Below are positions 1-16,855 of a DNA stretch of 64,000 nucleotides, piece after piece. How positions within the stretch are numbered: position 1 is the stretch's first letter; each line of letters opens with the position of its first letter. The translations under genes were made by a program, and so were the position numbers. The notes beneath the pieces are model-generated. The model ran no database searches. It saw nothing but the letters and a program-made list of their open reading frames with translations, and had not been told where the DNA came from. This DNA is from Deltaproteobacteria bacterium CSP1-8. GTDB taxonomy: Bacteria > Desulfobacterota > Deferrimicrobia > Deferrimicrobiales > Deferrimicrobiaceae. The stretch lies in contig LDXO01000005.1 in NCBI GenBank assembly GCA_001443455.1, positions 67,660 to 131,659 on the forward strand, in the 5' to 3' direction.

Positions 1-2
1 AC

Positions 3-338
3 ACGGCCCTGGAGAAGTGGGCCGCCGACAAGACCCGGACGCAGGTCGTAAAGACCCTCACGGATGCGGGCATCCTGGCCGCCCCCGTGATGAACGACCG
101 GGAGGTCTACGAATGCAAGCATTACCGGGAGAGGGGGACCCTCCGGTGGCTGGACGATCCCCTCTACGGAGACGTCCTGGTCGCAAGCGGCCACAGCGTG
201 GGGATGATGACGAAGACCCCGAGGAGAACCAACTGGATCTGGAGGCCGGTGGGCGCCGATAACGTCGGTATCTACCGTGACTTGCTCGGCATCCCGTTGA
301 GCAAGATCGAAGAGTGGTACAACAAGGCCTGGATCTAA
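3..338 (+). CDS. Family III (CaiB/BaiF) CoA-transferase, C-terminal part (5'-truncated by window edge)
   Basis: Open frame from the window start: [37 protein letters not shown]. It aligns with the C-terminus of 12532..13899 (ELEKWSADKTKEQV..RGTLAWIDDPTFGDV..FKPVGADN). Confidence 0.85.
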
Positions 339-358
339 TAAAAAAAGGAGGGATCCCC

Positions 359-844
359 GTGGCGGATGTCATTTGGTGTAAAAAAGTGGTGGGTGGAAAA
401 CCGTGTAACACGGTCAACTACCTGGATCCCTATTGCTTCTGGAACTGGGAGGGGAAGACCAACTGCGCGGAGTGCGGGACGGTCTATTACATCTACATGA
501 TCCAGGGGCATATGTACAGGGGACCGGATGAAAAACCGGGCGAGAAGCCGGACATGAGTCCCCTCTATGCGGACAAGCCGCTGGAAGGCTACACGTATTA
601 TTTGCCGGGCGTCAAAGGCAGAACGAGGCCCTATGAGTGCCTGCCCAGGCATATCTATCTGGGCAGGGCGGACATGGTCAAGTTCAGCATCCGGGGGAAG
701 CCCGTTCGCGGATGGCGTCCTCAGCCGCCGAGCGGCGGGCTGGCCGGTCAGTTCCCGTACAAGTGGGATATCAAGAAGTTGTCTCCCGAGGTGTGGGCGG
801 AGTATCAGGAGAAACGGAAAAAGGGCGAAGTCAAAGAGTGGTGA
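359..844 (+). CDS. Unknown Cys4 (zinc-ribbon-like) protein, NYLDPxxFWN type
   Basis: GTG start after AAGGAGG. C..C.T.NYLDPYCFWNWEGKTNCAEC and SIRGKPV.G are shared with 13921..14316. Confidence 0.8.
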   Translation: MADVIWCKKVVGGKPCNTVNYLDPYCFWNWEGKTNCAECGTVYYIYMIQGHMYRGPDEKPGEKPDMSPLYADKPLEGYTYYLPGVKGRTRPYECLPRHIYLGRADMVKFSIRGKPVRGWRPQPPSGGLAGQFPYKWDIKKLSPEVWAEYQEKRKKGEVKEW

Positions 845-862
845 GAGAAAGGAGAGGCGGAA

Positions 863-1123
863 ATGGTGGATAAGGCGAAACTGACGCCCGAAGAATACCT
901 GGCCACGATTCTTGTTCCGGAGAAGGGGCGGGAGACCGGGCATGTCTGCTGGGATTGCAAACACTTGAAGCCGGTTCTGAAGGGCTCCAAGTTCCCGCCC
1001 GCAGACCTCATCGGCTGGTGCACGATGATCCACTGGCCCTTCTACTGGTGCATCACGGATTTCAACGTAGTCAAGAAGTGCTACGCCATGGAAAAGGGGA
1101 TCTATACCCCGAAGAAGTTTTAG
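863..1123 (+). CDS. Unknown small Cys-rich protein (CxxC..GxC..WP..C)
   Basis: AGGAG RBS. CWDC..GWC..HWPF..KC pattern is shared with 14351..14539. Confidence 0.75.
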   Translation: MVDKAKLTPEEYLATILVPEKGRETGHVCWDCKHLKPVLKGSKFPPADLIGWCTMIHWPFYWCITDFNVVKKCYAMEKGIYTPKKF

Positions 1124-1126
1124 CCT

Positions 1127-1420
1127 ATGGAAGAGAACGTTCGCAAGGAACTGGAAACGCTCAAGGGGATGGTGCTCAACTGGAAAAAGGATTATCTCGG
1201 TTGGGCACCCCCCGACGGGGGATGGGAGTATCTGCCTCGAGAGCTCCTGGAGGAGATCGAGACCCACATATCCCCGTACATAAGAAGAATGTACGAGTGT
1301 GACTACCTCAGCCCATCCGAGGTTCGGGAATTCATGGAGAGCTGCTACCTGCAGGTGGAGGACCTTCGGAACACGTTGGGGGAAATAGAGGCAGAGCAGC
1401 TTTCCGCAAAAGGAGGATAA
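1127..1420 (+). CDS. Hypothetical protein
   Basis: Tight spacing in the operon, normal amino-acid composition, no recognised motif. Confidence 0.65.
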   Translation: MEENVRKELETLKGMVLNWKKDYLGWAPPDGGWEYLPRELLEEIETHISPYIRRMYECDYLSPSEVREFMESCYLQVEDLRNTLGEIEAEQLSAKGG

Positions 1421-1422
1421 AT

Positions 1423-1842
1423 ATGCCCGAGAAATGCCGTGTGGGGGTCTGTGGGTTCGACCCTATGCTCGTGAGAGGATACCTGAAGACGGGGGAGCGA
1501 GGCCTGTGGTGGCACCTGTCGGATGAACTGTACGAAGAACTCGGTGTCAAGCCAGGGACCCCGGTCTCGGGGAAGATCCTCGCGGTTTACGATGGGGAAG
1601 GGAAAAAGGTCTCCTCCCCGAATGACGCCTTCAACTGGAAGACGGCCAAGGAGTCGGGCCTTGCCGTCCTTCTGCCGCCGGATGTGATCAGCAAGTACAA
1701 ATTGACGGCATTCCATTTCCTGGAACTCCTCGTGGAAAAGATCGGCGACAAAGAGGTCTATCCGGGGAAGGAGCAGATGAGTATGAAATGGTGGCCCGAG
1801 GCGAAAATGAAGCTCGAATACAAGGTGGGCTATATCGAATGA
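1423..1842 (+). CDS. Hypothetical protein
   Basis: AGGAGG RBS, 2 bp after the upstream stop, protein-like composition. Confidence 0.7.
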   Translation: MPEKCRVGVCGFDPMLVRGYLKTGERGLWWHLSDELYEELGVKPGTPVSGKILAVYDGEGKKVSSPNDAFNWKTAKESGLAVLLPPDVISKYKLTAFHFLELLVEKIGDKEVYPGKEQMSMKWWPEAKMKLEYKVGYIE

Positions 1843-1995
1843 GGCCCGGGGAAATTTCGGCGGCGGGCTTCACCCGATCGCCGGGATTTTTCCTCCCCCT
1901 CCTCATCCCCCTCTCCTGGTCGGGCCGTCCGGGGGAGGGGGTCACTTATACGGGGGGGTGTATCGGCACCGATCATGGAAAGGGGCCGGGTGGAT

Positions 1996-3201
1996 ATGAC
2001 AGAGAACGGGAAAACCTCGCACGAGTGGGAGACGAAGCATCCCGGTTGGCTGCCTCTGTCGGGTCTTCTTGACGGGGCGGATCCGTTTTTCGAAAACGTT
2101 CTCTTCCTGCCCGGATACGAATTTTCCTCGAACGTTTACATCGTGGAGGGAACGTATCTCTCGATCGTGGATCCCGGAAACGATTACACGTCTTTTATCG
2201 ATCTCTTCCGGCGAGGGTACAAGCCGGCGGACGTTAAAAAAGTGGTCGTTACCCACGGCCACCGCGACCACGCGATGGGAGTGTTCGATCTCCTGAGATC
2301 GTATCCGACCATCCTGGAAAACGGTGGTTTCGAGCTCATCCTCCACGAAGCGAGCCCCCGCGAGCTCAAAGACATGGTCAGGAAATCCGGCTGCCGCGTC
2401 AAGGAGGTCCGGGGCGGAGAAACCCTGGAGATCAGCGGTCTTGACTGGGAAGTGATCCACACGCCGGGGCATACCATCGACGGGATCTGCCTCTATCATC
2501 CCCCGAGCAAAACCGTCTTTACCGGGGATACGGTGTTGCCCCACGCCATGTCCGAGCCGGACGAAAATGCCGGAGGAAGGCTGGACCACTACCTGTTAGG
2601 AGTAAGGACGCTGCTCGGAAAGGAGATCGAGCACGTTCTTCCAGGACATGGGCTGCCCGTCCTCTCGTCGGGCAGGAAGGTCATCGAGGAGACGTACGAA
2701 GGCCTGATGATGAAAGTCATCGGCGTTGAAGCGAAGACGAAAACCCCGTGGATCGACGGAGCGACGGCGCTTGCCCAAAGGGGGTGCCTGGAAGAGGCCG
2801 CCTATTGCTGCGACAGGGAGCTCTTCCTCGATCCGCAGAACCGAAGGGCACATCAATTGAAGGCCGTTTGCCTCAACGATCTCGGGCGGTTCCACGAGGC
2901 GCTCGAATCCCTGGGAAAACTGACAGGGCTTGGTCCGCAGGACGATGCGGATCCGTTCCCGCTCGTCGGAAGGGGATACGCGCTGATGGGACTTGGCAGG
3001 TACGAGGAAAGCGTCAAATATTTCGACGAGGCGCTGAAGGTGACCCCCGGCATGAAAGACGCGTTGATCTACAAGGGGATGGCTCTCTATCTCGCTGGAA
3101 ACTACGATGCGGCGATGGAGATCGAGCTTTTCCAAAAAGAATTCGTCGGAAGATTCCAGGAGGAGCTACGCAGGAAGGACAAAGGCGCCGGGCCCGCGTG
3201 A
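1996..3201 (+). CDS. Metallo-beta-lactamase-fold hydrolase fused to C-terminal TPR repeats
   Basis: THGHRDH, HTPGHT, FTGDT and LPGHG motifs. TPR-like repeats follow (GYALMGLGRYEESVKYFDEAL). Start could be 1975 or 1996. Confidence 0.85.
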   Translation: MTENGKTSHEWETKHPGWLPLSGLLDGADPFFENVLFLPGYEFSSNVYIVEGTYLSIVDPGNDYTSFIDLFRRGYKPADVKKVVVTHGHRDHAMGVFDLLRSYPTILENGGFELILHEASPRELKDMVRKSGCRVKEVRGGETLEISGLDWEVIHTPGHTIDGICLYHPPSKTVFTGDTVLPHAMSEPDENAGGRLDHYLLGVRTLLGKEIEHVLPGHGLPVLSSGRKVIEETYEGLMMKVIGVEAKTKTPWIDGATALAQRGCLEEAAYCCDRELFLDPQNRRAHQLKAVCLNDLGRFHEALESLGKLTGLGPQDDADPFPLVGRGYALMGLGRYEESVKYFDEALKVTPGMKDALIYKGMALYLAGNYDAAMEIELFQKEFVGRFQEELRRKDKGAGPA

Positions 3202-3216
3202 CAGGCGGCGTACCCG

Positions 3217-3405
3217 ATGGGGAAGACGGAAAAAAAACCGCCGGAACGGAAACCGTGGGACCCGAACTGCCCAAAATGTCGCGAAGAGCTGCAACGGCAT
3301 TCCGATCTTTGGCAGGCGCAATACGATGATGTGGACCACGGTGCGGGGATTTACCGATTGCTGTTCGAGCATTACTGCACGCATAAAAACCGGCAAGAGG
3401 GATGA
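3217..3405 (+). CDS. Small hypothetical protein with CxxC
   Basis: 62-aa ORF with CPKC and H/C residues, co-oriented with neighbours. Confidence 0.45.
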   Translation: MGKTEKKPPERKPWDPNCPKCREELQRHSDLWQAQYDDVDHGAGIYRLLFEHYCTHKNRQEG

Positions 3406-3478
3406 GGGGGAAATGCTTTCGTATCCGGCGTTTGTCGGCCATGGGAGGGATTAGGAAGGGGGCAGGAAGGAATAAGGG

Positions 3479-3727
3479 ATGAGCGACGAGAATGGACCGA
3501 AAGATGTTGCGCACTATGGCATTAAGCCATTTGTCGCCCCCGAGATCGGCGAAGAGCCGCCGGTGGGAGCCTGGATCGCGAAGGATGCCGTCTGTCGGGA
3601 CTGCATGACGGCCGCGGAAGAGATTTCGATGCGGAGGGGTTTCATCGATCCGGTATCCGCCAGGGAGGCCCGGGAAAACGGAATCCTCTGCACCCGTTGC
3701 GGGAACGCCGTTCCCGTCGGCCCATAA
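3479..3727 (+). CDS. Small hypothetical protein with two CxxC motifs
   Basis: CRDC and CTRC motifs, purine-rich RBS. Confidence 0.55.
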   Translation: MSDENGPKDVAHYGIKPFVAPEIGEEPPVGAWIAKDAVCRDCMTAAEEISMRRGFIDPVSAREARENGILCTRCGNAVPVGP

Positions 3728-3745
3728 ACCGTCGGGCCCTTTCTC

Positions 3746-4246
3746 ATGTCAGGGCAGGTCAGCAGGGATGGATGGACAGGCGAGGTTCCCGTGTCCGTCC
3801 GGTCCGCCGCGGAAGGCGACTTGAACGGGATCCTGGAGGTCGAAAGACTCTCCTTCCCGATCCGGAATCAGTGGGATGTCGGCGATTTCCGGGAGGCATT
3901 GAAGGATCTGTTTCTCGTCTTCGCGGACGGGGGAATATCCGGGTTCCTGATCGCCAGCTGCTGGGAAGACACAAAGAGAGCCGTCATCCTGCGGATCGCG
4001 GTGCATCCCGGTCACCGCAATCGCGGGATCGCGACCAGGCTGATCGAAGCCGCGATCGGGACGTTCAGGGAGATGGGCTTGCGGGAAGTCGAGATCGACG
4101 TGGAAGTCGTGAAACGGGGAGCCATCCGTCTGTATGAAAACGTCGGGTTTCGAACCATCCGGGGCATTCCCATGGATGAAAACAACACGATGAGCAATGA
4201 AAACGGAAGTTTCTACATGATGAAGATGGAAATCAACAAACCATGA
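3746..4246 (+). CDS. GNAT-family acetyltransferase (RimI-like)
   Basis: IAVHPGHRNRGIATRL acetyl-CoA motif and AIRLYENVGF. Confidence 0.85.
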   Translation: MSGQVSRDGWTGEVPVSVRSAAEGDLNGILEVERLSFPIRNQWDVGDFREALKDLFLVFADGGISGFLIASCWEDTKRAVILRIAVHPGHRNRGIATRLIEAAIGTFREMGLREVEIDVEVVKRGAIRLYENVGFRTIRGIPMDENNTMSNENGSFYMMKMEINKP

Positions 4247-4326
4247 GCATCCGTATGGTTTCACAAGGCCACGGTTTGACATCGACGCGCCTGACATGAT
4301 CCATACAGGGAAGAGGCGTATGCGCC

Positions 4327-4599
4327 ATGGATCCCATGTGGTTCTACGACGAGATGGGGGACCAGGAAGAGTGGCAGGCCTTCCAGAAGGATATTCTGCC
4401 TCTGGAAAAAGAATATCTGGAGATCCGCGTGGCGCTGCGCGACGCCGAGGCGGCCCTTCGGGACGATCCCGGGAACGATATCCTCCGGATCCGGGTGGAA
4501 AAGCTGAAGGAGAGACAGGGGGAGATGGAACGGAGCGCACCGTGGATCGCCTCGGACTACCCGTGGGAGTTCTTCCTATGGGGAGTCCCCCACGGATGA
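4327..4599 (+). CDS. Hypothetical protein (coiled-coil centre)
   Basis: 90-aa ORF with protein-like composition, no motif. Confidence 0.6.
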   Translation: MDPMWFYDEMGDQEEWQAFQKDILPLEKEYLEIRVALRDAEAALRDDPGNDILRIRVEKLKERQGEMERSAPWIASDYPWEFFLWGVPHG

Positions 4600-4620
4600 C
4601 GTGCGATCAAGGGATGCGGT

Positions 4621-5088
4621 ATGGAAAGACCGTATCGATGTCCGGTGTGCAACGCCCCGCTGGAAGAGGATAAGGATGCGGGGTTCAAGATCCCGCCGCA
4701 ATGTCCCTACTTGAACACGGCGTACCCGGAATTGTGCTCGCTTCACGACAAGCTTTATTTCGGGAAATGGAGAAAAATGGAAGCCGACCCCAACGATATC
4801 AAGAGGGCATTCGCGAAGCTCGGCCGATTGTTGTCCAAGATGAAAGAAGTCGTAGAGAAGGAGAACCTCGAGCCTGCCCGGCAGAACCTCAAGAAGGCCG
4901 GCGAGGCATTCGCTATGGCGGACGTGGACGAAGACCCGTATTCCTCCATTAAACACATGGACCAGACGCTTTCGTACATCCATCACGCGATCAACGACCT
5001 GCTGCAGGGGAAAAAGGCGAAGCTTCATTCCCCCGCGGACTACGAGAGGCATTACGATGTCATTCTCCCGTTCAAGGAGGACTGGTAG
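4621..5088 (+). CDS. Hypothetical protein with N-terminal CPVC..C..C motif
   Basis: 155-aa ORF, Cys-rich N-terminus and helical C-terminus. Confidence 0.65.
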   Translation: MERPYRCPVCNAPLEEDKDAGFKIPPQCPYLNTAYPELCSLHDKLYFGKWRKMEADPNDIKRAFAKLGRLLSKMKEVVEKENLEPARQNLKKAGEAFAMADVDEDPYSSIKHMDQTLSYIHHAINDLLQGKKAKLHSPADYERHYDVILPFKEDW

Positions 5089-5113
5089 GGTTTTCGATCC
5101 CGCCAGGGAAACG

Positions 5114-5140
5114 AAAAGGGCTCCTTTCCGGAGCCCTTTT
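5114..5140. terminator. Bidirectional rho-independent terminator
   Basis: AAAAGGGCTCC-tttcc-GGAGCCCTTTT between convergent genes. Confidence 0.8.
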
Positions 5141-5173
5141 CCGTTGACGCGCGCCTTGAATGCGTCGCCGGAT

Positions 5174-5503
5174 CTACATCTTCCCCACGAGGATGAACGC
5201 GATGACCAGGGAGTAGATGACGAGGGACTCGATCAGCGCGAGCCCGACGATCATCGGGATGAAGATCTTGGGCTGGGCGGAAGGATTGCGGGCAATCCCC
5301 TCCAGCCCGGCGGCGATGGCCCGGCCCTGGCCGAGCGCTCCGCCGAAGGATGCGATGGCGATGCCAAACCCGGCGGCCAGGGCGATGAAGGTTTTGACGC
5401 TGTCGCTCGTCCCGGCGGCAGTCCCTTCCGCCGCGAAGGCCGCGGTGGCCACTGCTACGAAGAGCAGTGCGAGCAGGAAAGTGAAGGAAACTTTGCGGAA
5501 CAT
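5174..5503 (-). CDS. atpE: F0F1 ATP synthase subunit c
   Basis: GxGxGxG-like stretch, ARNP loop, LIESLVIY carboxylate site, N-terminal extension. Confidence 0.95.
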   Translation of the reverse strand: MFRKVSFTFLLALLFVAVATAAFAAEGTAAGTSDSVKTFIALAAGFGIAIASFGGALGQGRAIAAGLEGIARNPSAQPKIFIPMIVGLALIESLVIYSLVIAFILVGKM

Positions 5504-5587
5504 CGGGTACCCCCCTTTGCAGATGGTATTGTGGACCCCGCCGGTTGGCTCCGCCCTCCCGGCAGGGAGTGATGCCGGACTTGCCCC

Positions 5588-6343
5588 TTAATGCTCCTCC
5601 TCGTGCGCGACCGCCCCGGAGATATAGATCATCGACAGCACGGTGAAAATGAAGGCCTGCATGAACGAGACGAACACGCCCAGCCCGTAGAAGATCGACG
5701 GGACGACGAAGGGAACCAGCCCCAGGAAGATCGCCACCACGAGGTGGTCGCCGGTGATGTTCCCGAAGAGACGCAGGGAAAGGGACAGCGGCCGGGCGAG
5801 GTGGGAGACGATCTCGATCGGCAGCATGATCGGGGCCATCCACCAGACCGGCCCGAGGAAGTGCTTGAAGTAGGCGATCCCGTGTTCCTTGACGCCGTAG
5901 TAGTGGGTGGACAGGAAGATGACGACCGCCAGGCCGACGGTGATGTTCATCTTGTCGGTCGGCGGGACGAAGCCCGGGATGAGACCCAAAAGGTTCATGA
6001 AGAGGATGAAAATGAAGCAGGTGGCGAGCAGGGGGACGTACTGTTTCGCCTTGTGCCCGATGATGTCCTCGGCGAGGTTCACGAGGAACGACAGGATGAG
6101 TTCGAACAGGTTGCGCAGCGTGAATCCCGGCTCGGGGATGACGAGATCGGCCGGCTTCTTTCCCGCGAAGGTGAAAACGGAGACGGCGACGAGCAGGACC
6201 GCGATCATGATCGCGGACAGGACGTATTGCGGGACGTGGAGGGGGAGCAGCTGGAACCAGGAAAAGGCCTCGTGGCCGCCGGCCGCGAGGGCCGTGGCCG
6301 GCAGCAGCAGAACCCCCAGAATTCCGCCCGCCCATCCGCTCAT
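5588..6343 (-). CDS. atpB: F0F1 ATP synthase subunit a
   Basis: ARPLSLSLRLFGNITGDH and MQAFIFTVLSMIYI. Start placed at MSGWAGG after GAAGGGG. Confidence 0.95.
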   Translation of the reverse strand: MSGWAGGILGVLLLPATALAAGGHEAFSWFQLLPLHVPQYVLSAIMIAVLLVAVSVFTFAGKKPADLVIPEPGFTLRNLFELILSFLVNLAEDIIGHKAKQYVPLLATCFIFILFMNLLGLIPGFVPPTDKMNITVGLAVVIFLSTHYYGVKEHGIAYFKHFLGPVWWMAPIMLPIEIVSHLARPLSLSLRLFGNITGDHLVVAIFLGLVPFVVPSIFYGLGVFVSFMQAFIFTVLSMIYISGAVAHEEEH

Positions 6344-6363
6344 CGTGCTCCCCTTCCGTGACG

Positions 6364-6789
6364 TCACTTGGTTTCCACCGCACTTGAGAGCCCTTCGAGC
6401 AGGACGCCGAAAAAGAGCGACGACAGGCCGAGCAAAAACCCCAGGACGTCGAAACGCCCCGAGCGGACCACGAGGTAGACCGCGGCCACCAGGGCAAGGA
6501 ACTTGAGGACGTACTGGACGACGAACCCCTTCCTGATGCCGCCCTCGACCGAGAAGGCTTTCCCCAGGATCTTCCGGATCAGGAAGAAGTTCCCGTAGGC
6601 GATCGCCGCGCCGCACGCGGCCCCCGGGAGCATCCGGTACTCCCCGACGATCGCGATCCCGGCAAGGACCACGCCGGCGGAGACGAGGATCTTCCTCTCC
6701 AGGGACCGGGACGTGAGAACGCTCGCCCCGTCGCTTCCGCGCGGGGCGCCGGTGTCTGCCACCGTGGCTCCTCCCCTTCCGCCGGGCAT
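6364..6789 (-). CDS. atpI: ATP synthase protein I
   Basis: Small 4-TM protein between atpZ and atpB. Confidence 0.75.
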   Translation of the reverse strand: MPGGRGGATVADTGAPRGSDGASVLTSRSLERKILVSAGVVLAGIAIVGEYRMLPGAACGAAIAYGNFFLIRKILGKAFSVEGGIRKGFVVQYVLKFLALVAAVYLVVRSGRFDVLGFLLGLSSLFFGVLLEGLSSAVETK

Positions 6790-6790
6790 A

Positions 6791-7057
6791 TCACCTTCCA
6801 CCAGGCTTCCTCTTGTCCTCTTCGTCTTTTTCCATGTCTTTCCCGGATTGGAGGGCGGCGCGGTACAGGCTTCGTATGCCCGCCGCGAATCCGATCCCGA
6901 TCCAGACCACCGTCATCCAGGGACCGGTTCCGAGCCACTTGTCCAGGTAATACCCGACGGCCAGACCGATAATGACCGCAATGGCCAGCTCGAGCCCCAG
7001 GGCGCTGTATCGGCCCAGTTCCCGGAAGAGCGCCCTTCGGTCCTGTTTGTCGGTCAC
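6791..7057 (-). CDS. atpZ: AtpZ/AtpI-family small membrane protein
   Basis: GLELAIAVIIGLAVGYYLDKWLGTGPW family motif. Confidence 0.8.
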   Translation of the reverse strand: MTDKQDRRALFRELGRYSALGLELAIAVIIGLAVGYYLDKWLGTGPWMTVVWIGIGFAAGIRSLYRAALQSGKDMEKDEEDKRKPGGR

Positions 7058-7099
7058 GTCGATAAACCCCAGTTACCTATCACAATCTCCGGAAGGCCG

Positions 7100-8401
7100 T
7101 CAACCGGAAAACCGCGACCCCCATCCCCGGAGGGCCTCCCGGGCGGCCCGGATCGTCCTGTCGAGGTCCCGGCGGGTGTGCGCCAGGGAGACGAACCCCG
7201 CCTCGAACTGCGAGGGGGCGAGATAGACGCCCCGGTCGAGCATCCCGTGGAAATATCTGGCGTAGGCTGACGTATCGCTCTTTTTCGCCGTCGCGTAGTC
7301 GACGACAGGGCCTTCCTGGAAGAAGGTGGTCCACATCGACCCGACCCGATTGGTCCAGGTGGGGACGCCCGTTTTCCGGAACACCCCCTGGAGCCCCTCG
7401 CCGAGGTAGTCGGATTTCTCTGCGAGCTTCCGGTAGGTGCCTTTCTTCGACAGTTCGGTCAGTGCGGCGATTCCCGCGGCAACGGCCAGTGGGTTCCCCG
7501 AGAGGGTCCCCGCCTGGTAGACGGGCCCCTCGGGGGAGAGGATGGCCATCACGTCGCGCTTACCGCCGAACGCCCCCACGGGCAGCCCCCCCCCGATGAT
7601 CTTCCCGAGGACGGTCAGGTCGGGCGAGATCCCGAACGTTTCCTGCGCGCCTCCAAAGGCGACCCGGAAGCCGGTGATCACCTCGTCGAAAATAAGGAGG
7701 GCCCCCGCCGTGCGGGTGATCTCCCGCAGTTCGTCCAAAAAACCAGGGGCCGGGAGGACCACCCCCATGTTTCCCGGGATCGGTTCGACGATCACGGCGG
7801 CGATCTGCCCCGGATTCTTTTCGAAGAGGCGACGAACGGAGGCCGCATCGTTGTAAGCGGCGGTCAGGGTGTGCTTCGCCGTGTCTTTCGGGATGCCCGG
7901 GGAGTCCGGTTGCCCGAAGGTGAGCGCCCCCGAACCCGCCTTGACGAGCATCGGGTCGGCGTGGCCGTGGTAGCACCCCTCGAATTTCACGATCTTGTCC
8001 CGCCCCGTTGCGCCCCGCGCCAGACGGACGGCGCTCATCGCCGCCTCGGTCCCCGAGGAGACCAGCCGTACCTTCTCGATCGAGGGGAATGCCCTGCGGA
8101 TGAGGCGGGCAAGCGCGACCTCTCCGGCCGTGGGCGCCCCGTAGCTCGTCCCCCGGCCCGCGGCTTTCCGGATCGCGGAAACGATTTTCGGGTGGGCGTG
8201 GCCGAGGATCATCGGCCCCCAGGAGGAGACGTAATCGAGGAACGTGTTCCCGTCCGCGTCGGTCACGGTGGCCCCTTTCGCTTTCGCGACGAACAGCGGC
8301 GTTCCCCCGACCGACCGGAACGCCCGGACGGGCGAGTTGACCCCCCCGGGGATCAGTTGTTTCGCCTGCCGGAACAGTTTCCTCGATGTCGCCGTTTTCA
8401 T
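7100..8401 (-). CDS. hemL: Glutamate-1-semialdehyde 2,1-aminomutase
   Basis: PGGVNSPVRAF, SSGTEA, FEGCYHGH, FDEVITGFR and GKIIGGGLP motifs. Confidence 0.97.
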   Translation of the reverse strand: MKTATSRKLFRQAKQLIPGGVNSPVRAFRSVGGTPLFVAKAKGATVTDADGNTFLDYVSSWGPMILGHAHPKIVSAIRKAAGRGTSYGAPTAGEVALARLIRRAFPSIEKVRLVSSGTEAAMSAVRLARGATGRDKIVKFEGCYHGHADPMLVKAGSGALTFGQPDSPGIPKDTAKHTLTAAYNDAASVRRLFEKNPGQIAAVIVEPIPGNMGVVLPAPGFLDELREITRTAGALLIFDEVITGFRVAFGGAQETFGISPDLTVLGKIIGGGLPVGAFGGKRDVMAILSPEGPVYQAGTLSGNPLAVAAGIAALTELSKKGTYRKLAEKSDYLGEGLQGVFRKTGVPTWTNRVGSMWTTFFQEGPVVDYATAKKSDTSAYARYFHGMLDRGVYLAPSQFEAGFVSLAHTRRDLDRTIRAAREALRGWGSRFSG

Positions 8402-8450
8402 CCGGATCCCCTCCTCCAGGCCGCCGCCGAACTGTTTTAAAGGATGGCGA

Positions 8451-8480
8451 ATTGTATCCGCTGACCGAGCGGGGTGTCAA
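8451..8480 (-). promoter_or_regulatory. Sigma70-like promoter of hemL-atp operon
   Basis: On the - strand, TTGACA-N18-TACAAT about 50 bp upstream of hemL. Confidence 0.6.
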
Positions 8481-8545
8481 GGGGAGTATCCACCGGAATT
8501 GCAAACGGTTTTCCATCCGTCGCAAAACAATATTTTTGGTTTGGC

Positions 8546-8575
8546 TTGACAGGCGCGGAAGCCGGAGTGTACATA
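8546..8575 (+). promoter_or_regulatory. Possible divergent sigma70-like promoter
   Basis: TTGACA-N18-TACATA upstream of the 8627 ORF. Confidence 0.4.
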
Positions 8576-8626
8576 TTACTCTTTGGCGAACGACCGTGGG
8601 AGGCGGCGGTGCCGCCGGGGGAAGGG

Positions 8627-9007
8627 ATGACGAAGGCAATCAGCGAAAAAGTGCAGATCGAGACGGAGTTTGGGCCCCTCTGGTCGGGGGGGGATTCCGT
8701 CTCGATCGGGGACCGGATCTATACCATGATCGAGATGAAGCGGGCGCTCGATCTGGAGGCGGCGGACGTGGTGGGAATCGACCTCCACGCCCTTCCCGAA
8801 GGCCTTTTCGCATTCCGGTTCTACGACGGGGACGACCGGCGTATCGTTGTCTTCATGCTCGATTCGGAACTGAACATCGTGAGGGAACTCCGTGCCCACA
8901 TCGCCGAATGGCTCGAGGAGGAATATTACAAGAGCGGAATCGAGGCGTTCCTGGCCGACCGGATCGTGGGTATGCTCCACCGGAAGGTGAAGGGGGAGGG
9001 CGGGTAA
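8627..9007 (+). CDS. Hypothetical protein
   Basis: ATG after GGAAGGG, 126 aa, globular composition. Confidence 0.7.
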   Translation: MTKAISEKVQIETEFGPLWSGGDSVSIGDRIYTMIEMKRALDLEAADVVGIDLHALPEGLFAFRFYDGDDRRIVVFMLDSELNIVRELRAHIAEWLEEEYYKSGIEAFLADRIVGMLHRKVKGEGG

Positions 9008-9253
9008 CCGGACGCCGGCCTGACGCCCGTCCCGCGGTTGCCGGAAGGAGCCGAAGCGGCATCCTCCGAACCCGTCCCCCTATTTATAAGGAAATTCCTT
9101 TTCCCCCATCCTCGAAGGAGGGGGGAATCCGCCCGATCCTTAAAAGGAGGCCTCGTTGATCCTGGAATGCTTGTGGGTATTTCCGAAGGAGGACAGGCAG
9201 GCGTTCATCGGGAAGGTGACTCGGCTTCCGGGTCCCTGCGAGGGGCTTACCGG

Positions 9254-10615
9254 ATGATCGACTCCTACGTCGAACTGGTACGGCACCGCCTGGAGAATCG
9301 CAGCGCCAACATCATGGCGAACCTCGAAAAGCTCGGGGAGGGGCACCTCCGGTTCACGATGCGGATCTTCGGGGACTGCCTCGACGAGGAAGCGCGCGGG
9401 AAGCTCCTTACGGGATACACGGAGTACTGGACCGAGATGGAGATCCGTTCTTTCGCAAAAGAGTTCGTCCCGGCGTACACCGAGTACGCGGTCACGGAGC
9501 TGCTGGAGAAGAAAAAAGACGGGGAGCGGTTCCACCCCCCTTACCTCACGCAGGAAGAGTACCAGGAGATGGCGGTCCGGGAGAAGTGGCCCAGGATCGC
9601 GGAACACCTGGAGGAAGTCTCTCCCTTGCAGCTGCGTCGCGAGGTCGCCCGCATGGGGATGCTCTTCCGGCCGTACATGCTCTCGGACCCCGGCTTCAAC
9701 GAGGGGGTTCTCGAATTCGCGTTGTATTTCGACCTGCTGGACCGGCTCACGGTCGTTCCTACGGCGGACCTTCGCACCGCGGCCCGCGAGATCGCTCCCC
9801 TGGTGGGAAGCGCCGTCGCGGCGAAGTCGATCGGGGAGTGCGAAATCATTCTCCCCCGGATTCGGGCCATTGCCGCGAAAGCCGCGCGGCTTCCCGCCGA
9901 TCCGGAGACGCTGCTGGGACCCGGGATGGAGAGGTATCCCCGGGAGGCCCCCCCGGGGTGGAAGCTCCGGGAGCTGCGCATGACCCTGGAGACGATGTCG
10001 CTCAAGGACCTGCGCCTGTCCGCCCTCGTCCACGTGGACATCCTGACCACCGAGGAGGTCCGGGAGATCGTCTCCCCCTTCATGGCCCGGTTCCCTTCCT
10101 TTTATGAAATCCCGGGCAACGCTCTTCGGGAGTTGATCGTGGCCATCGCCGGATCCGTCACCGACCGGCTGATCACCTACTTTTTCGACCGGTACTCCAC
10201 AGGGCGGATGGTGATGACGAAGCCGGTCTCCTTCCTCGTGTGGAAGCTCTCGCCCGAGGAGGAGAAGCTTCGCCTCCTGCGGGAGGACAACGAACGGATG
10301 GACTCCGCGATGATGGCGCGCCATCTCGCCCGGTTCCTCCGCTCCTCCTCCCCCGCCGAACTGGGGGACGCCGGCCGGCAGATCTCCCTTCTTACGAACG
10401 AAAACTTTACCTCCAACCATGGTTCGATATTGAAAAACCTCGGGGGAGGGCAGGAAGGAGAAGGAGTGAAGAGGCTCTACGACCAGGTGACGGTTCTCGC
10501 CCTGCGGATGATGTACCGCAGGGAGGCGGAAAAACAGGAGATGTTCGATGCCATCCGCGCGATGATCGCGGAAACAGCGGGGATCCCGCCCGAAACCAAC
10601 GAGGAGGAGACGTAA
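9254..10615 (+). CDS. Hypothetical protein (453 aa, helical)
   Basis: Long ORF with coding-like codon usage from MIDSY onward, no recognised domain. Confidence 0.75.
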   Translation: MIDSYVELVRHRLENRSANIMANLEKLGEGHLRFTMRIFGDCLDEEARGKLLTGYTEYWTEMEIRSFAKEFVPAYTEYAVTELLEKKKDGERFHPPYLTQEEYQEMAVREKWPRIAEHLEEVSPLQLRREVARMGMLFRPYMLSDPGFNEGVLEFALYFDLLDRLTVVPTADLRTAAREIAPLVGSAVAAKSIGECEIILPRIRAIAAKAARLPADPETLLGPGMERYPREAPPGWKLRELRMTLETMSLKDLRLSALVHVDILTTEEVREIVSPFMARFPSFYEIPGNALRELIVAIAGSVTDRLITYFFDRYSTGRMVMTKPVSFLVWKLSPEEEKLRLLREDNERMDSAMMARHLARFLRSSSPAELGDAGRQISLLTNENFTSNHGSILKNLGGGQEGEGVKRLYDQVTVLALRMMYRREAEKQEMFDAIRAMIAETAGIPPETNEEET

Positions 10616-10618
10616 CCT

Positions 10619-10825
10619 ATGGCCTTGGAATATATGGAAAAAATCGTTATGTTCAAGGAAACGCCCGAAGGATTGACAACGGATATGGAGTGGCTGCACG
10701 AGGCGGGGCAGGAAGGGTGGGAGCTCGTCTCGGCCATACCGCTTATCGCGCCGAACCGCGACGGCATCGCGTACGGCACTGTGGGAAGCCACATGATCCT
10801 CAAACGCCAAAAAAAGGTTTTATAA
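10619..10825 (+). CDS. DUF4177-like small protein
   Basis: GQEGWELVS..ILKR motif. Confidence 0.65.
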   Translation: MALEYMEKIVMFKETPEGLTTDMEWLHEAGQEGWELVSAIPLIAPNRDGIAYGTVGSHMILKRQKKVL

Positions 10826-10849
10826 ATAGGGTCATCAAGAAAAATTTGC

Positions 10850-10879
10850 TTGACACGCCCGCGATTAAAGGGATATAAA
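10850..10879 (+). promoter_or_regulatory. Sigma70-like promoter upstream of CoA-transferase operon
   Basis: TTGACA-N18-TATAAA in an AT-rich 280-bp intergenic region. Confidence 0.6.
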
Positions 10880-11104
10880 TAAAACATATTTATAAAAGTG
10901 CAACGTCAGATCCGGTAAAAAATCCTGATTTGATTAGAGTTTTCCCGGTTTTGCAAAACGGGGTAGAGACATCATTTTCGCCTGTCCCGGGGGAAAACGG
11001 AAAGGGGGGATTAGAGGGGGACAAGGGAGATAGAAGGCGCGATGCCTACCGTGTTTTCGTAGTGAAGTGTGCTGTGGTCCGGAAAATTTTTAAGGAGGGG
11101 TAGA

Positions 11105-12532
11105 ATGGCTGAAAAGTGGCGTACAGAGAAAAAACGGCCGAAAATCAAGGTTCTTCAGTGGCCAGCCATACCGACGCCGACAACCGACGAAGTATACGCC
11201 GGCGTGGATGAAAAGAAGAAGGCATATTCCCTGTGGATTGAATCCGCGGTTCGGCAACAGTTCAACGCGGACAAGCCGGAATCGCTGGACGGACTTCGCG
11301 TCCTGGACTGCACGGCGAACCAGATCATCGGCCACTGGTGCTCGTCCCACTTCTCGGAACTGGGGGCCGAGGTCATCATGGTCGAACCGCCGGGCGGCGA
11401 CCCGTTGCGGACAAGGGTTCCGTTCGGCCGTGAAGAGTATGCATTCACCGCCGCCAACGGCGAGAAGTGCAGCCCGCGGTTCCTCGCCGAGGCAAGGAAC
11501 AAGCTTTCCGTCACCCTCAACGTGGAGACGAAAGAGGGGCAGGATCTGCTCAAAAAAATAATCCCGCAGGTCGACGTCCTGATCGAAAATGCGGCCCCGG
11601 GGCACTTCGACAAGCTGGGGATCGGCTACCGCCAGCTTTCCGAGATCAACCCGCGTCTCGTCTACCTCTGGGTGGGGGAGCGCGGCCAGTGGGGCCCGCT
11701 CAAAGACCAGCCGGGAGCGATGGACCCGGTCGGGCAGAACGCGATGGGCTTTACCCACGGGACCGGCGCCCCGGTGGCGTTCGGCGGAACGCCGACCCGC
11801 TCCGGGTGGTGGCTCGCCGACCAGGTCGGCGGCACCTTCGCCGCGATGGGCGTGATGTCGGCCCTCTTCGCCCGGGAGAGGTTCCTGGGGAAGGGCCAGT
11901 TCGTGGAGTGCACGGCGGCCGAAGGCGTCATGCGGATCATCGACTACAACTGGGGATGGCACGGCATGGACGGCTCCGTCAGGCCCCGCTACGGGAACTG
12001 GGACCTGGCGATCAACATCTACGCGGTGAACCCCTGCGCCGACGGGCAGATCATGGTCGGCGGCGGGCACGACCGGCTCTGGTTCCGGATCTGGCGGACC
12101 GTAGGGAAAGACAGGCCCGAGCTCGAGCAGCACATCTGCGAGGACCCGAAGCTGCGCGTGGTGACCGACCGGCTCCCGCACTACATGCAGGTCGAGACCT
12201 ACACCACCATGTGCGACTGGACCAAGGACAAGACCCGGGCCCAGTGCGAGAAGGCGCTCCAGGAAGAGGAAGTGGCTTCCGGAGGAGTCTCCTTCCTCGA
12301 CGAGGTTTGCGAGTTCCCGCACTACAAGTACCGCGGCCACATCGAGATCTGCGACGACATCAACTATGGAAAAGTCCTCCTCGGAGCATCCAGTTTCATC
12401 GGGATGAACACCCCGGGGCGGATCAAGTGGATCGGCCGCACGGTCGGCCAGGATAACGAGGACGTATACCGCCGCCTCGCCGGGCTGGACCGCGAGAAAC
12501 TGAAAGCTCTCAGGAAGGGAGGGGTAATCTAA
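11105..12532 (+). CDS. Family III CoA-transferase with N-terminal extension
   Basis: LDGLRVLD..LGAEVIMVEPPGGDPLR, RNKLSVTLN, DVLIEN and ADQVGG (catalytic Asp position). AAGGAGG RBS. Confidence 0.92.
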   Translation: MAEKWRTEKKRPKIKVLQWPAIPTPTTDEVYAGVDEKKKAYSLWIESAVRQQFNADKPESLDGLRVLDCTANQIIGHWCSSHFSELGAEVIMVEPPGGDPLRTRVPFGREEYAFTAANGEKCSPRFLAEARNKLSVTLNVETKEGQDLLKKIIPQVDVLIENAAPGHFDKLGIGYRQLSEINPRLVYLWVGERGQWGPLKDQPGAMDPVGQNAMGFTHGTGAPVAFGGTPTRSGWWLADQVGGTFAAMGVMSALFARERFLGKGQFVECTAAEGVMRIIDYNWGWHGMDGSVRPRYGNWDLAINIYAVNPCADGQIMVGGGHDRLWFRIWRTVGKDRPELEQHICEDPKLRVVTDRLPHYMQVETYTTMCDWTKDKTRAQCEKALQEEEVASGGVSFLDEVCEFPHYKYRGHIEICDDINYGKVLLGASSFIGMNTPGRIKWIGRTVGQDNEDVYRRLAGLDREKLKALRKGGVI

Positions 12533-13899
12533 TGACTGCTGCGATCAGCAAAGACGTAAAAGATATGACGTTCGAGGATTTCTGCCGGTCCGTGTTCGAC
12601 ACCACGAAGCGGTACGACAAGCCCGAGACCCTGAAAGGGATCCGGGCGATCTCCACCACGCAGTACATCCTCGGCCCCTCCTGCGCGAACTACCTCGCGG
12701 AGCTGGGCGCCGAGACGATCAAGGTCGAGCTGCCCAAGCGGGGCGAGCCGATGCGGCACACCACGCCGTTCAACGAGCCGTTCCTCTATCCGCTGTCCCG
12801 CTGGATGCCGGACAAGGGGACGGGACTGGGCTTCTTCGGCGCGAACGCGAACGAGTACTTCATGTCGCTCGACTTCCACAAGCCCGAAGCGATCCAGATC
12901 ATGAAGCGTCTGGCCGCCAAGTCCGACGTCTTCGCCGAGAACTACCGGGCGGGCACGTTCGACCGGTGGGGGATCGGCGCGCGGCAGCATATGCAGATCA
13001 ACCCCCGAGTCGTCTACCAGTGGATGGGCGGCTTCGGCGGCTGGGGCCCGGGGCGCAACCGCGCCTCCTACGACATCCTCGGCCAGGCCCAGGGCGGCTG
13101 CTTCTCGATCACCGGGTGGCACAAGGAGTACGGCGGGATGCCCTCCAAGCAGACCATCTGGATCATGGACTACTGGGGCGGGGCGATTTCGGCGTTCAAC
13201 ATCATCGCGTGCCTCTACTGGCGCGACAACGTCTCGGGCAGGGGGAACTTCCTCGAATACTCCCAGGTGCACGGCGCCCAGAGACACCTGACCGACCTCA
13301 TCGCTCTCTACGGAAGGACCGGAATCGTCGCCCAGCGGTTCGGGAACTGGGAGCCGCTGCTCTGCGTCCACGGGATCCTCAAGTGCGGGAAGTCGTCGTA
13401 CCCGAACTCGAAGAACCCGCAGGAGCAGGAAGTGGGTTTCTGCCTCGTCTCGGCGTACAAGGACGAGGACTTCGCGAAGCTGTGCACGATGATCAACCGT
13501 TCCGATCTTGCCAAGAAGTACCCGACCCACGCCGACCGGGTGGGGGCCGATGCGCAGAGCGCCATCTACCCCGAGCTCGAGAAGTGGTCGGCGGACAAGA
13601 CGAAAGAGCAGGTCTGGGAGGAGTGCAAGAAGAACGGGCTCGTCTCCCAGCCGGTGTGGAACTCCAAGGAGGTCTCCGCACAGGAGCATTACCACCTCCG
13701 GGGGACGCTCGCCTGGATCGACGACCCGACGTTCGGCGACGTGCAGACGCAGGTGCTGCCGTGCCTCCTTTCGGATACTCCGCCCCGGACCCGCTGGGTC
13801 TTCAAGCCGGTCGGCGCGGACAACGAGTACGTCCTGGCCAAGCTGTGCGGCTACAGCGGCTCGCACATCGCCGAACTGGAGCAGAAAGAGATCATTTAA
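12532..13899 (+). CDS. Family III CoA-transferase
   Basis: LAELGAETIKVE, SDVFAENYRAG, ASYDILGQA and MDYWGG. TAATG overlap with the upstream gene. Confidence 0.92.
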   Translation: MTAAISKDVKDMTFEDFCRSVFDTTKRYDKPETLKGIRAISTTQYILGPSCANYLAELGAETIKVELPKRGEPMRHTTPFNEPFLYPLSRWMPDKGTGLGFFGANANEYFMSLDFHKPEAIQIMKRLAAKSDVFAENYRAGTFDRWGIGARQHMQINPRVVYQWMGGFGGWGPGRNRASYDILGQAQGGCFSITGWHKEYGGMPSKQTIWIMDYWGGAISAFNIIACLYWRDNVSGRGNFLEYSQVHGAQRHLTDLIALYGRTGIVAQRFGNWEPLLCVHGILKCGKSSYPNSKNPQEQEVGFCLVSAYKDEDFAKLCTMINRSDLAKKYPTHADRVGADAQSAIYPELEKWSADKTKEQVWEECKKNGLVSQPVWNSKEVSAQEHYHLRGTLAWIDDPTFGDVQTQVLPCLLSDTPPRTRWVFKPVGADNEYVLAKLCGYSGSHIAELEQKEII

Positions 13900-13920
13900 C
13901 GAACCGAAAAGGGGGATACG

Positions 13921-14316
13921 ATGATATTTAAGGATTCTTCACTTCTTCTTCAATGCCCGAAGTGCACGACGATCAACTATCTGGATCCGTTCACGTTCTG
14001 GAACTTCAAGGGAAAGATCAAATGCGCCGGCTGCGACGCGATCTGGGAGTACGCGCTCGAGAACGGCCACCGCAAGGGTCCCCCGGTGGAGGGGAAACCG
14101 CCCCACGACAAGCTGCCGGGCTTCGCGCAGACGACGGACTGGAAGCCGATCACCACTCCGGGAAAGGTGGCGCCCGCGCCGCAGGCCCGGGAAGACTTTC
14201 AGGGGAAGCCGATCCCGATTACCAAGAGCATCCGCGGGAAAGCCGTCTCCGGCAAGCCGCTTTCGACCGAGGAGCTGGTCGGGAGCATTCCGAAGATGTT
14301 CTACACAGGCATCTGA
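13921..14316 (+). CDS. Unknown Cys4 (zinc-ribbon-like) protein, NYLDPxxFWN type
   Basis: CPKC.TINYLDPFTFWNFKGKIKCAGC..SIRGKAVSG. Paralog of 359..844. Confidence 0.8.
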   Translation: MIFKDSSLLLQCPKCTTINYLDPFTFWNFKGKIKCAGCDAIWEYALENGHRKGPPVEGKPPHDKLPGFAQTTDWKPITTPGKVAPAPQAREDFQGKPIPITKSIRGKAVSGKPLSTEELVGSIPKMFYTGI

Positions 14317-14350
14317 TCGCTTGACCATTTTTTAGACAGGAGGGGATACC

Positions 14351-14539
14351 GTGGCAAAAATCGTTCCGAATTGTCAAGGTTGCAAGAACTTCCTCGCGGC
14401 CCTCGACCCCGAGATCAGCAAGGCGTACATGGGAGCGTGCTTGAAGCTCGAGTGGCCCTACAACATCAACATCCCGAAAGACGATGGGATCGAAGGGGAG
14501 TGCGGCTTCTACGAAGGACCCGGCCCCGCGACAAAGTAA
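14351..14539 (+). CDS. Unknown small Cys-rich protein
   Basis: GTG start after AGGAGGGG. CQGC..GAC..EWPY..EC pattern. Paralog of 863..1123. Confidence 0.7.
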   Translation: MAKIVPNCQGCKNFLAALDPEISKAYMGACLKLEWPYNINIPKDDGIEGECGFYEGPGPATK

Positions 14540-14585
14540 AAAGATTCTTGAACCGACCGTCGCCGGTCTGGTAGATTAGCGACGC

Positions 14586-14644
14586 GGCAAATCCACGGCC
14601 GCCTTTGGGAAAAATCGGGTGCGGCCGTGGATTTTGCCTTTTTA
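14586..14644 (+). terminator. Long stem-loop followed by T-run (terminator-like)
   Basis: GGCAAATCCACGGCCGC pairs with GCGGCCGTGGATTTTGCC, followed by TTTTT. Confidence 0.55.
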
Positions 14645-14691
14645 TGCGGCAATTTTCCCAAACACCATTCTGGGAAGGAGGGCATGCAACG

Positions 14692-15066
14692 ATGAAGGTG
14701 GAATTCTATTACGACAGCACGGTGCAACCCGGCGCCACATTCGCCACCAACAACGCGAAGGCCGTCGAGCTCGTCAACCAGCTGGCGGCCAAGGGCGTCA
14801 ACGCCAAGGCCGTTGACTTACAGGGCGCGCAGGTTGCCTTCATGACGTACAACGCGGCGCTGACGGGCCCGAAGGCGCAGGTGCGCGCGGTGTTCGGCGC
14901 GAAAGGCGCGCTCCAGGAAGACTTCGGGAAGACCGTGCCGGCCCTCCTGGTCTTCGAGAAGGACGCGGACCGCTACCCGACGGAGGCCTTCCCCCGGTCC
15001 GACAGGGACCTGCAGCGGACCCTGGGCTGCGAGGAGGCCCTCCAGGGGCTTCTGGAAAAGGCGTAA
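14692..15066 (+). CDS. Hypothetical protein, possibly thioredoxin-like fold without CxxC
   Basis: GAAGGAGG RBS. TVPALLVF cis-Pro-like segment. The fold assignment is weak. Confidence 0.6.
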   Translation: MKVEFYYDSTVQPGATFATNNAKAVELVNQLAAKGVNAKAVDLQGAQVAFMTYNAALTGPKAQVRAVFGAKGALQEDFGKTVPALLVFEKDADRYPTEAFPRSDRDLQRTLGCEEALQGLLEKA

Positions 15067-16823: not shown

Positions 16824-16855
16824 GGCCCGGCGGTTTCCGGCCGCCGGGCCTTTTT
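16824..16855 (+). terminator. Rho-independent terminator
   Basis: GGCCCGGCGG-loop-CCGCCGGGCC-TTTTT. Confidence 0.8.

Follow-up and report, generated by a model that had tools for sequence, protein, structure and literature searches.

The 64,000-nucleotide stretch of Deltaproteobacteria bacterium CSP1-8 analysed here (contig LDXO01000005.1, positions 67,660 to 131,659 of the forward strand; hereafter the window) carries two diverged copies of a gene module in which two family III CoA-transferases, alpha and beta, are followed by two small cysteine-containing proteins. The transferases are named here CTA (alpha) and CTB (beta), the first small protein, a Cys4 zinc-ribbon protein with the motif NYLDPxxFWN, is named ZR, and the second, a small Cys protein, SC. 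The copy in the first 3.2 kb of the window is referred to as cassette 1 or type 1, and the copy between 8.6 and 16.8 kb as cassette 2 or type 2. The order alpha-beta-ZR-SC was found wherever the contig allows it in all of the 174 loci compared (86 of type 2 and 88 of type 1), which extend over at least eight bacterial phyla and four archaeal lineages. We read the module, with modest confidence, as a heteromeric family III CoA-transferase that would consist of an alpha-beta core and two small metal-stabilised subunits, and which would thus represent a known enzyme class with a new set of conserved accessory proteins.

An earlier note on this DNA had described the order CoA-transferase, ZR, SC as occurring twice, at 3..1123 and 12532..14539. 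Listing and translation of the open reading frames (ORFs) recovered all six genes in these places, and the ORFs, the matches to the CoA-transferase family PF02515 and the profile homology of both the ZR and the SC proteins agree on the repeat. Each cassette had been credited with one CoA-transferase; the genes named do belong to family III, but a second transferase gene, alpha, lies upstream and had been missed. Similarly, the proposed three-gene module is correct as a core order, but both cassettes run on with further conserved genes, which are described below (U4, LIG and U1-U3 in cassette 2; X1, X2 and MBL-TPR in cassette 1).

The transferase pair is complete in cassette 2, where CTA2 (11105..12532, + strand) and CTB2 (12532..13899, + strand) match PF02515 over profile positions 1-366, i.e., as full-length members, with 261 bits (E 1.9e-77) and 252 bits (E 1.4e-74), respectively, in the Pfam scan. 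The CTA2 ORF opens at a GTG at 11069, and relatives of 471-475 aa suggest the ATG at 11105 as the true start; the ATG of CTB2 begins on the last base of the CTA2 gene (12532). Cassette 1 is cut by the start of the window, which retains the C-terminal 111 aa of CTB1 (3..335, + strand). This fragment fits the C-terminal part of PF02515 and is 43% identical to CTB2 over 109 aa, as opposed to 39% to CTA2. In relatives with a longer upstream contig, cassette 1 contains a 495-aa alpha gene and then a 471-aa beta gene. The exact SC1 protein is present on at least 23 contigs, and in those of these contigs that extend further upstream the order is a sigma-54/PAS activator, two small ORFs, the 495-aa and 471-aa transferases, ZR1, SC1, X1, X2, a metallo-beta-lactamase-TPR protein (MBL-TPR) and further genes.

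CTA2 and CTB2 share 28% identity. Between the cassettes, identity is 44% from alpha to alpha and 45% from beta to beta, as opposed to only 27-31% from alpha to beta, which indicates that the split into alpha and beta predates the split into cassettes, and that the unit copied was alpha-beta-ZR-SC. Judged by these comparisons, the four-gene module is ancient and not a local duplication. A recent local duplication was rejected, since other phyla contain separate orthologues of each copy; these also bear out the view that the module is old and under selection.

Both transferases appear to be catalytically competent, as predicted from a retained aspartate: the Asp of 'WIMDYWGG' in CTB and of 'WLADQVGG' in CTA aligned with the catalytic Asp of 'VAMTDIVAG' in a solved formyl-CoA transferase, and the CTB residue aligned also with its counterpart in BbsF. 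The best matches of both proteins in the PDB are formyl-CoA, succinate-hydroxymethylglutarate and benzylsuccinate CoA-transferases, and the cassette proteins are 40-90 aa longer than these solved relatives. Against the NCBIfam equivalog models, all transferase scores fell far under the cut-offs. In the PDB sequence comparison CTA scores higher to BbsE and CTB higher to BbsF, and the pair shows the gene arrangement of BbsEF, with two adjacent, diverged paralogues that each have their own orthologues. BbsEF, a succinyl-CoA:(R)-benzylsuccinate CoA-transferase (PDB 9fn0), and SmtAB likewise comprise two adjacent, diverged family III genes with the catalytic Asp in both, so that a heteromer is likely from sequence for the cassette proteins as well. 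However, the cassette proteins match BbsEF with only 88-100 bits and are 45-80 aa longer; moreover, the BbsEF entry contains two subunits and no small Cys proteins, whereas the cassettes always add two to three conserved small ones.

ZR1 (161 aa, 359..844, + strand) and ZR2 (131 aa, 13921..14316, + strand) both carry NYLDPxxFWN between two Cys pairs and continue into a long tail, which in ZR2 is conserved and mostly extended. The ZR1 ORF opens at 314, and the GTG at 359, which lies behind AGGAGG, is the likelier start and yields the 161 aa called in relatives; a Shine-Dalgarno site is also found upstream of ZR2. The two proteins share 33% identity (BLAST E 7e-14) and are related in profile searches (hmmsearch 5.6e-21; hhalign 99.3%). 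The four Cys are kept in nearly all members, as are N19, D22, P23, W27 and an RG pair in the tail. The Cys4 motifs claimed in the earlier note apply widely to the Cys pairs of ZR, but the first pair of ZR1 in the window is Cx8C, through an insertion, and the Cys of SC are not universal. In the relatives of ZR1 without the insertion, about a third of the 21 aligned sequences, this pair is CxxC.

No family is assigned to either small protein, as had been claimed: neither ZR nor SC has a match above the cut-off in Pfam, NCBIfam or PADLOC. A match to a family already characterised was one of the outcomes that the earlier note had named as refuting its reading, and it did not occur. The N-terminus of ZR2 gives a weak, sub-threshold zinc-ribbon match to PF13719 (16.4 bits against a cut-off of 29.3), and three ZR2 homologues carry a precomputed match to this family. 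An AlphaFold2 (AF2) model built from 115 sequences (pLDDT 88, pTM 0.67) is confident and shows a small ribbon, behind which about 90 residues adopt hardly any regular secondary structure. Its best Foldseek match in the PDB is the zinc finger of ZitP (39-residue overlap, E 1.3); no OB-fold protein was among the Foldseek matches, and no beta-barrel follows the ribbon in the model. In its N-terminal 35 residues or so, ZR has a CxxC...CxxC hairpin pattern and may, with these weak matches, resemble the MJ0042-type ribbons (PF13717/PF13719; ZitP, PDB 2nb9), in which nothing corresponds to the NYLDPxxFWN insert or to the 90-residue tail. A HMMER search over 1.84 billion representative proteins returned 82 representatives at E up to 1e-3, and by this count the ZR family is small and self-contained. 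Longer ZR "fusions" among these representatives were considered and look like frameshift artefacts or rare variants.

SC1 (86 aa, 863..1123, + strand) adjoins ZR1, and SC2 (62 aa, 14351..14539, + strand; AGGAGG and a GTG start) occupies the equivalent operon slot. In a pairwise comparison the two are barely alike (BLAST E 0.016), but a profile built from 86 SC2 relatives recovers SC1 at E 7.5e-6, and hhalign aligns them with 84% and E 7e-6 over 52 columns that cover the whole Cys motif. Among 47 type-2 sequences the first Cys is retained in 43, the second in 35, the third in 44 and the fourth in 34. Most of the losses at the second and fourth positions fall to the NC10 members, which are without the fourth Cys and have Pro in the second Cys column; a few other members are without the first or third. 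A structural metal site in SC is hence likely, though not in all members.

In type 2, SC is followed by U4 (125 aa, 14689..15066, + strand), a thioredoxin-fold-like protein without CxxC. In 24 of the 86 type-2 loci, from several lineages, SC and U4 form a single ORF, and from these gene structures SC is a detachable N-terminal domain of a larger, predicted SC-thioredoxin-fold protein; a homologue search with U4, aimed at SC-U4 fusions, returned close, unfused relatives only. The AF2 model of U4 has a pLDDT of 74, with residues 52-80 below 50, and almost all of its top 50 Foldseek matches are thioredoxins, glutaredoxins, ArsD and peroxiredoxins, the best with E 0.034, a probability of 0.93 and a TM score of 0.43-0.50. 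CxxC is missing both from the window protein and from the family consensus; column 20, commonly a single Cys in the family, is occupied by Thr in the window. Sequence profiles of U4 and of U2, a further cassette-2 protein, found no match in the PDB, and Foldseek against the PDB gave no convincing relative for ZR or U4.

The linkage of the small proteins to the transferases was evaluated with homologues of both ZR types, with one genome per species in the Genome Taxonomy Database (GTDB) scan. For ZR2 the protein collection yielded 148 homologues, each of them annotated as hypothetical, and the GTDB scan yielded relatives in 273 genomes. The 80 best loci belong to the Deferrimicrobiaceae (the lineage of the window, 85-90% identity), Methylomirabilota/NC10, Rokubacteria, Acidobacteriaceae, Chloroflexota, Anaeromyxobacteraceae and Gemmataceae. 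ZR1 has 116 homologues, among them proteins of the cultured Desulfacinum infernum DSM 9756, D. hydrothermale DSM 13146 and Desulfosoma caldarium, and of metagenome-assembled genomes (MAGs) of Syntrophobacteraceae, Archaeoglobus, Thermoplasmata, Methanocellales and Hydrothermarchaeota. Over both types, the lineages comprise Deferrimicrobia, NC10, Rokubacteria, Acidobacteria, Chloroflexota, Syntrophobacteria and Archaea. The gene content of the type-2 loci was determined by searching six-frame ORFs with the window proteins and then with iterated profiles.

Whether the Cys4 proteins stay beside CoA-transferases had been set beforehand as one of the checks on the proposed association, and they do: a CoA-transferase lies directly upstream of ZR in each of the 69 type-2 loci whose contigs extend at least 1.5 kb further upstream (after six coordinate artefacts were resolved), and SC1 adjoins ZR1 in 88 of 88 type-1 loci. 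By a conservative count, the alpha and beta pair is present in 52 of the 58 loci with enough upstream DNA. ZR, SC and U4 occur in 86/86 type-2 loci, and the ligase LIG in 78/86. Type-1 loci contain beta in 79/88 and alpha in 54/88, the remainder being contigs that end early, together with X1 (81/88), X2 (72/88, including archaeal loci), MBL-TPR (61/88) and an upstream sigma-54 activator (34/88). The genes are tightly packed, with strong Shine-Dalgarno sites, and in the two archaeal loci the ZR gene overlaps the SC gene. Four loci (L007, L012, L017 and L025) are filed under Actinomycetota, Limnocylindria and Gemmatimonadota, with ZR2 proteins 71-90% identical to that of the window and synteny of the Deferrimicrobia type; these contigs are probably mis-binned. 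With regard to base composition, window positions 1-6000 and 10001-12000 have a G+C content of 0.58-0.59, compared with about 0.65 for most of the window, and a positive AT skew; the lower G+C of both cassettes could reflect a foreign origin or be a property of the genes.

Besides U4, the type-2 cassette contains LIG (15146..16783, + strand), an AMP-forming acyl- or aryl-CoA ligase with a Pfam AMP-binding match. Its closest solved structures are anthranilate-CoA ligase, ACSM2A and benzoate-CoA ligase, and it scores below the cut-off of the benzoate-CoA ligase family. The aromatic-type ligase that the earlier note had seen nearby is hence of the aryl or medium-chain type by its closest structures, and aromatic-type is a plausible label for it. 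A terminator-like hairpin (16824..16850, + strand) with a 12-bp stem, 10 GC pairs and a T-run marks the end of the type-2 operon. Upstream of the transferases lie U1 (about 126 aa, 8627..9007, + strand; no Pfam match), U2 (453 aa, 9254..10615, + strand; no Pfam or PDB sequence match), which appears helical by eye, and the highly conserved U3 (68 aa, 10619..10825, + strand), which is weakly DUF4177-like (PF13783, E 2.5e-4, below the cut-off). The U1-U2-U3 trio is found in about 45 of the 86 type-2 loci; where it precedes the core it is on the same strand, and where it follows the core, on the opposite one. In Rokubacteria (L003) it stands beside TPR, VWA and MoxR-type AAA genes, and TPR proteins are encoded as free-standing genes beside U2/U3 in NC10 and Rokubacteria and fused to the metallo-beta-lactamase (MBL) domain in type 1. 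The dedicated regulators encoded nearby are a sigma-54 activator and an IclR protein.

Two genes further downstream are possibly associated with the cassette. The nearby thioesterase already recognised in the earlier note is a YbgC-like 4HBT acyl-CoA thioesterase (18595..18990, + strand; Pfam 4HBT_2), which occupies an equivalent position in Deferrimicrobia relatives. The other gene encodes a U32-family protein (19380..20642, - strand; PF01136) that resembles UbiU and TrhP. Across unrelated phyla, 49 of 94 loci have a U32 gene within 10 kb; these genes resemble UbiU, UbiV and TrhP, all below the cut-off. In NC10, two to three copies (up to three in a row) directly follow LIG, in Rokubacteria one lies directly upstream of alpha, and an Archaeoglobus type-1 locus has one. 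Such genes are found at L050 13778-17438, L003 5783-6895 and L091 15885-16904. Their recurrence may point to a hydroxylation in the same pathway that needs no oxygen. The thioesterase and an AI-2E-family permease (17392-18474, - strand) are bracketed by a 153-nt inverted repeat that is 95% complementary (16996-17148 and 19119-19271), with a 51-nt direct repeat near it; the 153-nt sequence has only these two copies in the window and could be a mobile or recombination element.

Between the SC2 and U4 genes, the DNA encodes a two-hairpin RNA with a U-run that resembles a terminator or attenuator (14562..14645, + strand; dG -37.7 kcal/mol, z -3.9). A small hairpin is followed by a large one with the invariant core ATCCACGGCC...GGCCGTGGAT and then by the U-run, and compensatory changes were observed at four base pairs at the base of the stem. 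The element is present once, at exactly this spot, in 33 loci of the Deferrimicrobia type with split SC and U4 genes; neither the window nor the 174 loci contain it elsewhere. Rfam gave no known RNA family in the first 21 kb of the window, which includes the element. Through attenuation or processing, the element may set the ratio of the transferase genes to U4 and the ligase.

Cassette 1 continues with X1 (97 aa, 1127..1420, + strand), a helical protein, X2 (139 aa, 1423..1842, + strand), both without a Pfam match, and MBL-TPR (1975..3201, + strand), which combines a glyoxalase-II-like metallo-beta-lactamase fold with TPR repeats (Pfam Lactamase_B and TPR) and whose MBL domain is closest to LACTB2 and to GloB/glyoxalase II, a thioester hydrolase. 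Apyc1-like matches of this domain in relatives had raised a defence-system reading, which was rejected after a PADLOC scan without significant matches for ZR, SC, X1, X2, MBL-TPR, U1, U2 and U4. Further downstream, two small Cys-rich proteins are encoded, X3 (82 aa, 3479-3727; 11/88 type-1 loci) and X5 (155 aa, 4621-5088; 18/88), the latter with CPVC near its N-terminus; neither is assigned to a family. A GNAT acetyltransferase and the 90-aa ORF X4 lie between them (3746-4599), likewise in L095, and are missing at that place in the close relatives L087-L090; this difference is an indel in the tail of cassette 1. In a hhalign-type profile-profile comparison of 15 accessory families only ZR1 with ZR2 and SC1 with SC2 proved related, which rules out that X1, X2, X3 and X5 are diverged copies of U1-U4. 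The Hydrothermarchaeota type-1 locus L094 encodes a protein (10850-11530) whose N-terminal half is X1-like and whose other half resembles U4, with its predicted thioredoxin fold; this fusion would link the accessory proteins of both cluster types. A few kb downstream of it lie corrinoid methyltransferase genes (URO-D, RACo and B12-binding) and an HGD-D gene.

Taken together, ZR and SC are best read as accessory subunits, with both the physical complex and the metal binding predicted from sequence. Four observations argue indirectly for physical subunits: the adjacency does not vary across domains of life, the small genes closely follow those of the enzyme, SC and X1 can be fused to U4 or a U4-like domain, and the conserved ZR tail is extended in the model as in wrap-around subunits. 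Each cassette would thus encode alpha, beta and two small, metal-stabilised, non-catalytic subunits: ZR as an MJ0042-like Cys4 ribbon with about 90 conserved, mostly extended residues, and SC as a Cys knuckle of about 50 residues that in many genomes would be the N-terminal domain of the U4 protein. ZR and SC, or SC-U4, would clamp onto the interlocked alpha-beta dimer and there give the acyl-acceptor site its shape or provide a docking place for partner enzymes. The rest of each cassette would supply thioester-making or thioester-breaking partners, in type 2 LIG, which would provide the first acyl-CoA alongside U1-U3, and in type 1 the glyoxalase-II-like MBL-TPR hydrolase with X1 and X2. The substrate would be an organic acid of possibly aromatic or dicarboxylic nature.

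Several points weigh against the accessory-subunit reading. To our knowledge, the characterised family III transferases need no extra subunits. A fusion of a CoA-transferase with ZR was found neither in the 174 loci nor among the 82 ZR representatives. Metal binding by SC would not be universal, because NC10 and some other members lose Cys, and for the substrate class the only pointer would be the weak similarity of the ligase. A bolder possibility, which we regard as doubtful but worth stating, is that alpha, beta, ZR, SC and U4 form, instead of a plain CoA-transferase, the centre of a novel machine of several enzymes, for example an ATP-primed, CoA-dependent pathway in which U32-type oxygen-independent (prephenate-dependent) hydroxylases act on an aromatic or quinone-like acid in anaerobes. 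If this were true, ZR, SC and U4 would each represent a new adaptor family, with U1-U3 and X1-X2 as additional components.

Other roles for the small proteins appear unlikely on the present evidence. Zinc ribbons often bind nucleic acid, and ZR and/or SC might, instead of being stoichiometric enzyme subunits, have a part in regulation or assembly, for instance as nucleic-acid-binding zinc fingers that target the hairpin between SC2 and U4, whose invariance and exact position in 33 loci, and nowhere else in the DNA examined, would suit such a role, as would the MoxR-VWA chaperone genes beside U1 and U2 in Rokubacteria. However, ZR and SC occur throughout, while the hairpin is confined to loci of the Deferrimicrobia type; in 24 loci SC forms one protein with a predicted thioredoxin-fold domain, a dedicated sigma-54 activator and an IclR protein are encoded alongside, and the tight spacing behind the enzyme genes fits co-translated subunits, so that we consider regulation improbable. 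It is still harder to see ZR and SC as iron-binding, rubredoxin-like electron carriers for a redox enzyme of the pathway, such as the U32-type Fe-S hydroxylases. Cys4 knuckles of the CxxC...CxxC type can bind Fe, and U32 genes recur within 10 kb in the 49 of 94 loci mentioned, including the two to three copies after the ligase in NC10, but there is no rubredoxin or ferredoxin match in Pfam, ZR finds its best structural match in a zinc finger, and whole lineages have lost Cys ligands of SC. Moreover, most type-1 loci have no U32 gene nearby, and while ZR and SC are fixed beside the transferases, the U32 genes shift in position and strand.

A different question is whether the enzyme itself catalyses what its family name implies, since the family III fold also houses racemases and intramolecular transferases, as seen among the PDB matches (PMC9196870; PMC11659651). 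Alpha and beta might then be a racemase, an intramolecular transferase or a catalyst of a new acyl transfer, with the small proteins defining the chemistry, and the NCBIfam equivalog scores far under the cut-offs and the additional 40-90 aa would accord with this. Against it, the catalytic Asp is kept in both proteins, their best matches are true CoA-transferases, and the ligase and thioesterase fit a normal CoA-thioester turnover; such an activity seems to us a slim prospect. That the small ORFs arose by chance or that the repeated order is a coincidence, for which only the weak pairwise score of SC1 and SC2 could be cited, is refuted by hundreds of orthologues at 50-97% identity, Shine-Dalgarno sites, fixed positions and profile homology. 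The heteromeric transferase with accessory subunits remains the reading that we prefer.

The usual view of family III CoA-transferases is that of self-sufficient homo- or heterodimers. A member that is a stable part of a larger multi-protein enzyme is FldA in the phenyllactate dehydratase FldABC, where its partners are 2-hydroxyacyl-CoA dehydratase subunits with Fe-S clusters; in contrast, no such dehydratase is conserved here, and an HGD-D gene lies near one archaeal locus only. In the literature we found no described family III transferase with small zinc subunits, nor this cluster in the host lineages. The earlier note had likened the small proteins to DUF35 (PF01796/PF12172; SSO2064, BbsA, thiolase/HMG-CoA synthase complex), a zinc-ribbon/OB-fold partner of thiolases that serves as a non-catalytic scaffold (PMC2954200, PMC12960953). 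As a functional analogy this is fair, as ZR, too, is a small predicted zinc-ribbon protein encoded beside a CoA-thioester enzyme. It does not extend to homology: neither ZR nor SC matched the DUF35-type profiles (PF12172 and PF01796) in the Pfam scan at E up to 0.1, ZR has no OB fold and no Pfam match, and its partner is a CoA-transferase and not a thiolase. With respect to the recurring U32 genes, UbiU, UbiV and TrhP are prephenate-dependent U32 hydroxylases (PMC6747719, PMC10990095, PMC6599085), which the cluster proteins resemble with scores far below the equivalog cut-offs; a link between U32 enzymes and CoA-transferases was not found in the literature.

The analysis provides a genomic context for at least seven families without a model, as ZR, SC, U4, U1, U2, X1 and X2 have no Pfam or NCBIfam family at the cut-off. 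The enzyme class is well studied, and a transferase that from Archaeoglobi to Acidobacteria is invariably encoded with two or three small proteins of its own would extend the range of its known architectures. The carriers comprise at least 273 species-level genomes, including abundant lineages of soil, groundwater and sediment (NC10, Rokubacteria, Deferrimicrobia and peat Acidobacteria), and the cultured carriers D. infernum, D. hydrothermale and Desulfosoma caldarium make the module testable. An unrecognised piece of anaerobic organic-acid metabolism may underlie it.

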